A stretch of 63,648 nucleotides of DNA, the filler included, from Reclinomonas americana ATCC 50394 (Eukaryota), in the NCBI GenBank assembly GCA_048213135.1. It is 18 parts of 18 records of this genome, joined end to end, with 100 filler letters (N's around TTAATTAATTAA, not from the genome) between each part and the next. Parts side by side here need not be neighbours in the genome. Positions count along the whole stretch, not along the records: positions 48,466 to 54,674 come from AFZH01018220.1; positions 54,775 to 55,948 come from AFZH01018221.1; positions 56,049 to 57,741 come from AFZH01018222.1; 15 more parts are not named here. One strand, 5' to 3'. A program made the position numbers and the translations under genes. The notes beneath the pieces are model-generated. The model made no database searches, had not been told where the DNA came from, and saw only the letters and a list, made by a program, of their open reading frames with translations. Each line of letters opens with the position of its first letter. The stretch's first letter is position 1. Shown one piece after another: positions 54,424 through 57,336 of the stretch.

Positions 54424-57336
<2,913 letters not shown>

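Follow-up and report, generated by a model that had tools for sequence, protein, structure and literature searches.

The SmF gene of Reclinomonas americana ATCC 50394, as carried by a stretch of 63,648 bases (hereafter the window, by which we mean the whole of the DNA analysed), is predicted to open with an intron that starts GTTGCGT (GTTGCG at 54447-54452, plus strand), and it raises the question of whether such a 5' splice site is a singular oddity or the member of a class and, in the latter case, of how the class would be read by the spliceosome. The original prediction had listed about 20 introns starting GTTGCG(T) and had treated them as a discrete and abundant class that coexists with GTGCGT, GTACGT and GTGAGT donors; all 20 of the listed sites were supported by our analyses, and the class was recovered as described. 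We consider that GTTGCGT is a genuine second 5' splice-site class of ordinary U2-type GT-AG introns, on the evidence of junctions that are all predicted (from homology, reading frame and splice-signal models built on this single window).

Junctions placed by homology

Judged from alignments, homology appears to set the cut before the first G of the motif in SmF, EBP2 and the ACC-synthase-like (ACS-like) gene, and to be consistent with it in IBA57, ORMDL and Use1. In SmF (intron 1, 54447..54957, plus strand, spanning a gap in the window) the first exon reads ATG AAC CAC TTG TTG AAC CCG AA/GTTGCGT (the slash marking the junction), which amounts to the first 7.7 codons (MNHLLNP plus AA), and exon 2, beyond the gap, follows the acceptor ...GTGCACAG and begins G CCA TTT CTG. 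As the unspliced open reading frame (ORF) aligns from that codon to human SmF (4pjo_F, K8-G31, E=5.6e-7), the cut is pinned inside the Lys codon. The donors GTTGCGT, GTTTGT and GTGTGT stand side by side in this gene, which is distributed in order across three contigs.

In EBP2 (5068..5146, minus strand, GTTGCGT, 79 nucleotides (nt), phase 2; also found by the gene models) splicing at 5146 yields DDLQRETAF/YTQAEQ, which aligns without gaps to DDLNRELAFYKQA of the fungal EBP2 P0001 (the one fungal match returned by a homologue search with the EBP2 ORF), and the Pfam Ebp2 positions 4-51 and 50-189 fall on the two flanking ORFs. Two alternative cuts were tried and rejected: a GC donor at +4 (with GTT kept in the exon) requires a gap in EBP2, scoring 246 against 257 for the GTTGCG cut, and inserts an extra residue into the NPK-PF of SmF, and a boundary shifted by one (TT...AGN) changes the conserved F of the EBP2 'AFY' to L. 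Five cuts, including that of a second EBP2 intron (5290..5389, minus strand, GTTGCGT, 100 nt, modelled), had originally been described as fixed by homology. This holds for SmF at 54447, EBP2 at 5146 and the ACS-like gene at 46647, and IBA57 at 42799 is consistent with it; the cut at 5389 proved ambiguous, a GTCGTT donor at 5392 (3 nt upstream) scoring 268 to its 257 against the single homologue P0001 in a weakly conserved stretch.

For the ACS-like intron (46647..46721, plus strand, GTTGCGT, 75 nt, phase 0) a 16-codon exon ends ...VSNDTQY, and in the exon after it MLAELLED aligns to apple ACS (1m4n_A) with residue 312 as the first matched position, the apple residues 310-311 (QH) lying just before the aligned segment. 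A PDB search with the 28-amino-acid ORF of this mini-exon returned nothing useful; the mini-exon itself probably fits ACS sequences, and several of the homology calls depend on one homologue each or on probable fits of this kind (the ACS mini-exon, and IBA57 beyond RKR). In IBA57/CAF17 (42799..42867, plus strand, GTTGCGT) the alignment to human CAF17 (6qe3_A, residues 175-236) ends at RKR, exactly at the donor, and the next exon begins VLPVVF; since this 69-nt intron is in frame and free of stops, the call rests on splice signals and on the alignment break. Its retention would insert 23 residues and would not truncate the protein. The ORMDL intron (61134..61203, plus strand, GTTGCGT, 70 nt, phase 2, in agreement with frame reading) lies between ORFs that carry Pfam ORMDL positions 6-99 and 100-134, and the alignment to the plant ORM 7yjk_D stops with VPVVL at the donor, a PDB search with the second ORMDL ORF having returned nothing useful. 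Lastly, the Use1 intron (590..660, minus strand, GTTGCGT, 71 nt, also read from frame and found by the models) is flanked by ORFs that carry Pfam Use1 positions 138-189 and 186-243.

GTTGCGT as a discrete and abundant donor class

Counted on both strands, GTTGCG is present in 75 copies, as compared to 53.4 +/- 6.9 in dinucleotide shuffles (none of the 100 shuffles reaching 75). Modelled donors make up 19 of the 37 copies of GTTGCGT in the window, as against 10 of 75 for GTGCGT and 6 of 81 for GTGAGT. In total, 24 copies of GTTGCG stand at the starts of short GT-AG introns (17 from gene models, four from homology and three by eye), which corresponds to 24 of ~97 introns (roughly 22-25% of those in the window), and all 24 introns, enumerated in the text, run GT...AG with continuity of frame. 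Among the 20 sites of the original list, 14 (660, 5146, 5389, 13798, 14099, 15327, 17003, 17293, 18080, 18303, 27827, 31710, 32537 and 39118) were supported by gene models together with the mixture analysis described below, four (54447, 42799, 46647 and 61134) by homology-anchored reading and two (11682 and 33764) by frame reading alone; the introns placed earlier at 27828 and 32538 stood, with their exact starts corrected to 27827 and 32537. Further sites were found beyond that list, at 25232, 32380 and 58173 (models) and at 27568 (by eye, across a gap). A literature search by motif string (GTTGCG, GTTGCGT and GUUGCGU) found no description of such a donor class among the titles and abstract openings listed; a genome paper of the lineage might hold one.

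Three tests were blind to the donor sequence. The first selected GT...AG pairs 40-250 nt apart that were flanked by 25 open, coding-like codons on each side and had a CTNAY and a YAG, and among the distinct donors of its 146 frame-interrupting candidates GTTGCG was the commonest (7, followed by GTGAGT with 5 and GTGCGT with 4). The second required 15 codons and introns of <=160 nt, and was passed by 83 of 7,839 GT sites (1.06%), among them 6 of 75 copies of GTTGCG (p=1.5e-4), 5 of 81 of GTGAGT and 3 of 75 of GTGCGT. The third was a Viterbi parse that lacked any model of the donor and drew on codon usage, a model of acceptor and branch and a prior on length; of its 74 introns GTTGCG again started the most (5, the next donors having 4 and 3), where independence of positions predicts 0.26 (p=6e-6). 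Furthermore, a donor-blind parse of a Cys-rich gene (30.5-40.8 kb, minus strand) with a codon table of its own gave 22 introns, including the GTTGCG introns at 31710, 32380 and 39118.

The discreteness of the class was assessed on a set of 94 modelled introns, of which 65 belonged to gene models that do not overlap, 22 to the Cys-rich gene and seven were anchored by homology. The donor of every intron was left free to be any GT in frame with the modelled one, within 60 nt on its upstream and 21 nt on its downstream side (mean 2.6 candidates). An expectation-maximisation (EM) mixture of position matrices reached a log-likelihood of 520.6-521.4 with two classes (in 8/8 random starts) and 407.7 with one, and the gain of 113.7 exceeds the penalty of ~84 set by the Bayesian information criterion. 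The best solution consists of naG/GTGnGt (weight 0.69) and naa/GTTGCGT (weight 0.31), with assigned donors (n=94) comprising 21 GTTGCG, 10 GTGCGT, 6 GTGAGT, 5 GTGTGT and others. The 21 GTTGCG donors compare to 1.08 expected if donor positions were independent (p=4e-21), so that the motif is far more frequent than the position-independent donor model, named beforehand as the yardstick, would have it. Where candidates tie, the mixture step leans towards GTTGCG, so that the donor-blind figures are to be trusted more. Two further procedures were set aside: EM of a single position-weight matrix within the gene finder, which ran to 421 introns on low-complexity GT/GA repeats, and hexamer enrichment at the ends of coding-like segments, in which the noise was too high.

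Anatomy of the GTTGCGT introns

Over the 28 introns assigned to the class, T is found at +3 in 26, G at +4 in 26, C at +5 in 25, G at +6 in 25 and T at +7 in 24, with positions +8 to +10 unconstrained; the T at +3 and the C at +5 depart from the donor consensus of a purine at +3 and a G at +5. As had been proposed, GTTGCGT equals GTGCGT plus one T, by which the conserved G/T is shifted from +5/+6 to +6/+7 and C comes to stand at +5. A T at +7 is carried by 19 of the 21 GTTGCG donors, and class members with other hexamers (GTTTCGT, GTGGCGT and GTTTGGT) likewise have G-T at +6/+7. Such rarer donors with G-T at +6/+7 (GTTTCGT, GTGGCGT, GTTTGGT and, in an earlier run, GTTGTGT) appear in the models at 13970 and 16674 (plus strand) and at 5948 and 4192 (minus strand). 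On these models, the +6/+7 offset may be wider than the one 7-mer. The additional T is seen with the GCGT core only (19 GTTGCGT versus 10 GTGCGT donors, as compared to 0 versus 9 for GAGT/ACGT cores; p=0.001); GTTGAGT and GTTACGT together have 9 copies in the window, and no donor is among them. The models also contain the donors CAG/GTCCCC (44814, plus strand), AAG/GTCCTT (45256, plus strand) and GAG/GTCCGA (62824, minus strand), with a strong exon side and scant intron-side consensus; these modelled GTCC sites are possibly a third donor flavour or a modelling error.

On the exon side, G at -1 is present in 2 of 21 GTTGCG donors, as compared to 45 of the 59 that have G at +5 (p=9e-8), and A is the commonest base of GTTGCG donors both at -1 (9/21) and at -2 (9/21); counted over 24 sites, position -1 holds A in 11, T in 5, C in 5 and G in 3. 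Beyond the donor the two classes are alike. Branch points and lengths, which the original prediction had proposed to compare, show no difference between donor classes: the median intron length is 73 nt for GTTGCG and 70 nt for standard introns (p=0.70), CTNAY occurs within the last 45 nt of 14/21 and 51/59 introns, respectively, and the median distance from the branch A to the 3' splice site is 21.5 nt and 20 nt. The acceptor has C at -3 in 21/21 GTTGCG introns, and GTTGCG and standard donors occur within the same genes. Moreover, no shared internal sequence was detected among 20 GTTGCG introns, the pairwise local scores of which had a median of 6.0 (maximum 12.5) versus 6.0 between classes (p=0.46). 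Given the same length, branch and acceptor, and an interior that is not shared, we argue that these are U2-type introns that differ only at the donor, and neither U12-type introns nor introners. U12-type introns have the donor /RTATCCTT and the branch site TCCTTRAC; this assignment was rejected, as the donors here are GTTGCGT and the introns share their branch (CTNAY) and acceptor (CAG) with the major class.

Pairing with U1 and its register

Positions -3 to +9 of every donor were paired computationally with AUACUUACCUG, the 5' end of the standard U1, in any register, and the duplex energy was taken. Random GT sites (n=600) had a median of -2.3 kcal/mol and the donors that carry G at +5 (n=59) one of -6.1; the median of the 21 GTTGCG donors was -1.4, which is weaker than that of the random sites (p=0.002). 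The 59 standard donors adopt the textbook register, with C8 of U1 opposite +1 in 52/59 and C4 opposite +5 in 44/59; for GTTGCG donors, duplex prediction by a model without pseudouridine or proteins places C4 opposite +6 in 8/21. Deletion of one U after the GU converts GT[T]GCGT to GTGCGT, the commonest standard hexamer (10/94).

In an inverse test, 1,024 hypothetical U1 5' ends (positions 4-8 varied) were ranked by their power to tell donors apart from random GT sites (n=220). The standard end was the best for the standard class (area under the curve (AUC) 0.872, serving as positive control), which we read as a sign that a standard U1 operates, and it gave 0.349 for the GTTGCG class. The end AUACGCAACUG reached an AUC of 1.000 for the GTTGCG class and 0.608 for the standard class, and the best single compromise was AUACGUACCUG (0.817 for both classes), with AUACGCACCUG giving 0.824 and 0.763. 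The exon side points to the register as well: the -1 column of the class has a log-likelihood of -27.2 under the standard -2 column, -47.6 under the standard -1 column and -30.3 under background, and a -1 column that resembles the standard -2 column is what a shift by one position predicts.

No U1, U6, U11, U12 or other small nuclear RNA (snRNA) was found in the window at Rfam gathering scores (at E<=0.5 there were only 11 weak matches to microRNA families, on repeats), the standard U1 5' end has no match in the window at <=1 mismatch, and the matches to ATACGCAAC in the window are the reverse strands of donors only. Taken together, the depletion of G at -1, the weak pairing and the absence of GTTGAGT/GTTACGT donors weigh, indirectly, against a plain single-U bulge on the standard U1, and a register shifted by one (with A at -1) or a different partner fits somewhat better.

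Relation to known donor-recognition systems

Non-canonical U1 registers were reportedly described by Roca & Krainer in 2009 and by Roca et al. in 2012, and U12-type introns are the only established discrete minority class that has a donor-reading snRNA of its own and lies in the same genes as major introns. The GTTGCGT introns differ from the latter in having neither the U12 donor nor the U12 branch, their CTNAY branch and CAG acceptor being those of the major class.

In human, all validated non-canonical registers (shifted, or with a bulge at +3 or +2) together cover 1.5% of 201,541 sites, with the bulge at +2/+3 accounting for 54-68 sites and predicted to be more stable than the canonical register (mean ~-2.2 kcal/mol; PMC4856993). 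The GTTGCGT donors are similar to such off-register sites in their extra U after the GU, in a consensus-like sequence that arrives one position late and in the cut at the upstream GU, and their A at -1 is compatible with the U10 pairing of the human shifted register. They are dissimilar in scale and in kind, since they start ~22% of introns here, consist of one fixed 7-mer and have a predicted pairing with the standard U1 that falls below that of random GT sites.

Altered U1 recognition sequences are recorded for Entamoeba (ACAAAC, with GUUUGU donors) and Mastigamoeba (ACGUAC, with GUGCGC donors), and standard together with modified U1 copies are reported for Physarum, by Roy & Bowser (bioRxiv 10.1101/2022.06.08.495308). 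The donors described here recall those of Entamoeba (U at +3) and of Mastigamoeba (GCG core), where the atypical donor is matched by an altered U1 5' end; Physarum suggests that two U1 types can coexist, and the Mastigamoeba-type U1 sequence is the best single compromise for both classes in our inverse test. In contrast to the three lineages, each of which has a single consensus and no offset of one nucleotide, we find two discrete classes in the same genes with such an offset.

Lastly, U2-type 5' splice sites have been divided into two major classes, AG//GUNNN (favoured by U5 loop 1) and NN//GURAG (favoured by the U6 ACAGA box), with a reported dependence on LUC7 paralogues (PMC11732430; PMC11842720). 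As in this division, one class of the window leans on the exon-end G (naG/GTGnGT, 45/59) and the other on the intron side; unlike it (the two being halves of one consensus in one register), the intron-side class of the window is offset and has C at +5 instead of G.

What reads GTTGCGT

We tentatively favour, at a confidence that falls somewhat short of even, an off-register recognition of GTTGCGT by a partner with a non-standard U1 recognition sequence. According to this proposal the base pairs that read the site would be displaced by one nucleotide from their usual register, with the +1 G taking the place of the exon-end G and the A at -1 pairing with the next base of the snRNA. The partner would be a second U1 variant (of the type ...ACGCAAC...) that exists beside the standard U1; alternatively, an altered U1 (...ACG[U/C]AC...) would read these sites by bulging a single U. 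Events downstream of U1 would be left to the same spliceosome, and U6 would accommodate the extra U. A non-standard partner appears the most likely because pairing to AUACUUACCUG lies below random and because positions +3 to +7 are nearly fixed, inclusive of a C that mismatches U1. The most elaborate form of the proposal, namely two parallel donor-reading channels within the major spliceosome (the standard U1 for (A)G/GTGNGT and an ACGCAAC-type U1-like snRNA for A/GTTGCGT, one nucleotide out of register and in about a quarter of introns), seems to us rather unlikely; if true, two-channel reading would constitute a third discrete intron class beside U2 and U12, differing only at donor recognition.

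A number of points weigh against the off-register reading with a non-standard partner. A single window of 63.6 kb yields few introns (94-97, with self-made gene models), the mixture step itself prefers GTTGCG among ties, and the nearest-neighbour energies leave out pseudouridines, U1C/U1-70K/LUC7 and the cap. The -2 column of the class does not fit the shifted register and does not discriminate (log-likelihood -30.8 versus -29.5). The variant partner is purely what we infer from donors, the window having neither a U1 nor a U6 gene, and, since the standard class fits the standard U1 best, any variant must coexist with a standard U1; we know of no established system in which two U1 types serve separate intron classes. 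Because a single T insertion converts GTGCGT to GTTGCGT, the standard machinery must initially have tolerated the new site, which speaks for a reading by the standard U1. Furthermore, none of the models considered here accounts for a U6 that handles a C at +5 and a G at +6, and atypical donors go together with an unchanged, standard U1 in most lineages that have them, among them yeasts, Giardia, Trichomonas, Mamiellales and Thecamonas (bioRxiv 10.1101/2022.06.08.495308).

It is quite possible, though we hold it with less conviction, that the class is real and is read by a single standard U1 small nuclear ribonucleoprotein, through a bulged U at +2/+3 or a helix shifted by one that U1C, LUC7-type proteins and U5/U6 contacts would stabilise. 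One mutation interconverts GTTGCGT and the commonest standard donor (10/94), the A at -1 suits a shifted register, and a standard U1 sequence is clearly at work in the inverse test; both registers are experimentally established in human cells (PMC4856993), and the standard U1 is retained in most odd-donor lineages (bioRxiv 10.1101/2022.06.08.495308). Against such a reading stand the predicted pairing to AUACUUACCUG, which is below that of random GT sites (-1.4 versus -2.3 kcal/mol; AUC 0.349), and the near-invariant C at +5 (25/28), which mismatches U1. Moreover, GTTGAGT and GTTACGT should pair equally well or better and are used in 0/9 instances, G at -1, which in the bulge register would contribute a further pair, is depleted (2/21), and the human bulge at +2/+3 is limited to 54-68 of 201,541 sites (PMC4856993), versus ~22% of introns here.

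We regard as improbable a definition of GTTGCGT mainly without U1 pairing, by a sequence-specific protein or by direct engagement of U6/U5 with A-rich exon ends on U5 loop 1. It would account for a fixed 7-mer that lacks complementarity to the standard U1, an A-rich exon end (A at -1 in 9/21 and at -2 in 9/21) could be held more firmly by the uridines of U5 loop 1, and a division of known 5' splice sites into U5-favoured and U6-favoured classes exists (PMC11732430). By reasoning and not by computation, GUUGCG nevertheless shows no obvious complementarity to the U6 ACAGA box in its normal register, no candidate protein is known, and the allotment of the classes does not suit it, the standard class keeping G at -1 like the U5-type and the GTTGCGT class being unlike the U6-type motif GURAG.

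That the class is an artefact of gene modelling, with the GTTGCG copies being coding (Val-Ala, Cys or Leu-Arg codons) or lying beside the true donors, we consider very unlikely: although the gene models are all self-made, the mixture model is self-reinforcing, the donor at 5389 has a competing GT 3 nt upstream, the IBA57 intron keeps the frame and lacks stops and one GTTGCG 'donor' (15946) falls in a spurious antisense gene, homology locates one junction in each of six conserved genes to a codon or less, GTTGCG comes first in the donor-blind tests, 19 of 37 GTTGCGT 7-mers are at modelled donors and the T at +7 (19/21) is not explained by coding use. Introner families of some algae and fungi comprise many introns with identical ends, and ~8 of the ~16 introns of one gene belong to the class, but copies of a recently spread introner-like mobile element with its own donor are contradicted in this window, where nothing is shared beyond +7 and within-class scores equal those between classes (p=0.46), and such an origin strikes us as exceedingly improbable.

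Distribution of the introns and gene content of the window

A large gene (11565-19352, plus strand) has a 680-residue exon and many introns of 60-90 nt, of which ~8 of ~16 are in the class; it has no Pfam match, and a protein search with this exon (682 residues) found no relative. Near its start, the GTTGCGT intron 11682..11756 (75 nt), placed by eye only and not predicted by the Viterbi model, joins two long ORFs in frame with removal of two in-frame stops, and has a CTCAC branch and a CTGCAG acceptor. It is followed on the same strand by 13798..13861 (GTTGCGA, 64 nt; donor-blind coding/branch criteria and models), 14099..14159 (GTTGCGT, 61 nt; sole candidate of its cluster in the donor-blind scan, and models), 15327..15386 (GTTGCGT, 60 nt; models, with a CTAAC branch and a GCGCAG acceptor), 17003..17085 (GTTGCGT, 83 nt; models), 17293..17355 (GTTGCGT, 63 nt; donor-blind scan, and a mixture posterior of 1.00 over GTTGGA at 17305), 18080..18143 (GTTGCGT, 64 nt; found in the first Viterbi pass without any signal model and by later models) and 18303..18382 (GTTGCGC, 80 nt; models).

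A very large Cys-rich repeat gene occupies 30537-40782 on the minus strand (pattern CPAG-x-YC... / GxxxC-x-x-C), with its own codon usage, and with a GC skew of ~+0.17 and an AT skew of ~+0.2 on the plus strand; it has no Pfam match, and the general codon model scored it as non-coding. Its GTTGCGT introns, all on the minus strand, are 31628..31710 (83 nt; donor-blind Viterbi parse with the gene-specific codon table, ACTGAC branch and GTGCAG acceptor), 32305..32380 (76 nt; donor-blind Viterbi parse), 32473..32537 (65 nt; mixture posterior 1.00, the Viterbi parse having chosen an in-frame GT 12 nt downstream), 33690..33764 (75 nt, by a gap; by eye only, with the branch CTCACTGAC and a CATGCAG acceptor, after which the exon resumes ...AACTS in match with the repeat motif) and 39000..39118 (119 nt; donor-blind Viterbi parse). 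The remaining GTTGCGT introns are also on the minus strand: 25162..25232 (71 nt; models, with the highest class score of 10.4, a CTAAAC branch region and a GTGCAG acceptor), 27739..27827 in a coiled-coil-like gene (89 nt; donor-blind scan, first Viterbi pass and models), 58091..58173 (83 nt; sole candidate of its cluster in the donor-blind scan, and models) and a probable intron across a gap at 27321..27568, read by eye, for which the exon ends ...LDNA/ and the acceptor at 27321 fits the frame but is uncertain.

The window has a GC content of ~52-61% and 17 gaps (between 1354 and 57841, e.g. 54675-54774), each composed of 44 N, TTAATTAATTAA and 44 N, that is, a six-frame stop linker; several of the gaps fall within introns that adjoin microsatellites such as (CT)n and (ACGT)n. 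A Pfam scan of 428 stop-free ORFs identified fragments of Use1, EBP2, a PTPLA protein, IBA57/CAF17, mitochondrial ribosomal protein S16, an ACC-synthase-like aminotransferase, CK2-beta, SmF, ORMDL and an Arf-family GTPase, and the breaking of all these genes into several ORFs implies many short introns. In the aminotransferase gene (45452-46458, plus strand) the Pfam positions 190-219 were present in no ORF found and the stretch is rich in GAG/GGA repeats, so that either an exon is unplaced or the assembly is faulty there. Weak two-strand matches to microRNA families at 49595-49703 and 46036-46270 (E 6e-6 to 0.5, far under gathering scores) lie on simple repeats and are almost certainly spurious. 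The best relative of EBP2 among 1.84 billion representatives is 48% identical, and the named top matches are spread over green algae, glaucophytes, Amoebozoa and stramenopiles. Judging by such distant protein relatives, the lineage of the source organism appears to be poorly sampled.

Implications for intron recognition

The recognition of donors by the U1 5' end is among the most conserved RNA-RNA contacts in eukaryotes, and off-register donor recognition is known but rare; what would be new here is a major fixed class of such donors, possibly with its own reader. At a practical level, gene finders with position-independent donor matrices will mis-annotate a large share of the introns of this genome. 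If the off-register reading is true, the organism would offer a natural experiment, in which between a fifth and a quarter of introns open with a fixed off-register 7-mer that stands beside standard donors in the same genes and has no predicted complementarity to the standard U1, and which bears on the choice of the cleavage site independently of U1 pairing, on the tolerance of U6 towards an extra nucleotide near the catalytic centre, and on whether a variant snRNA can partition introns into classes.

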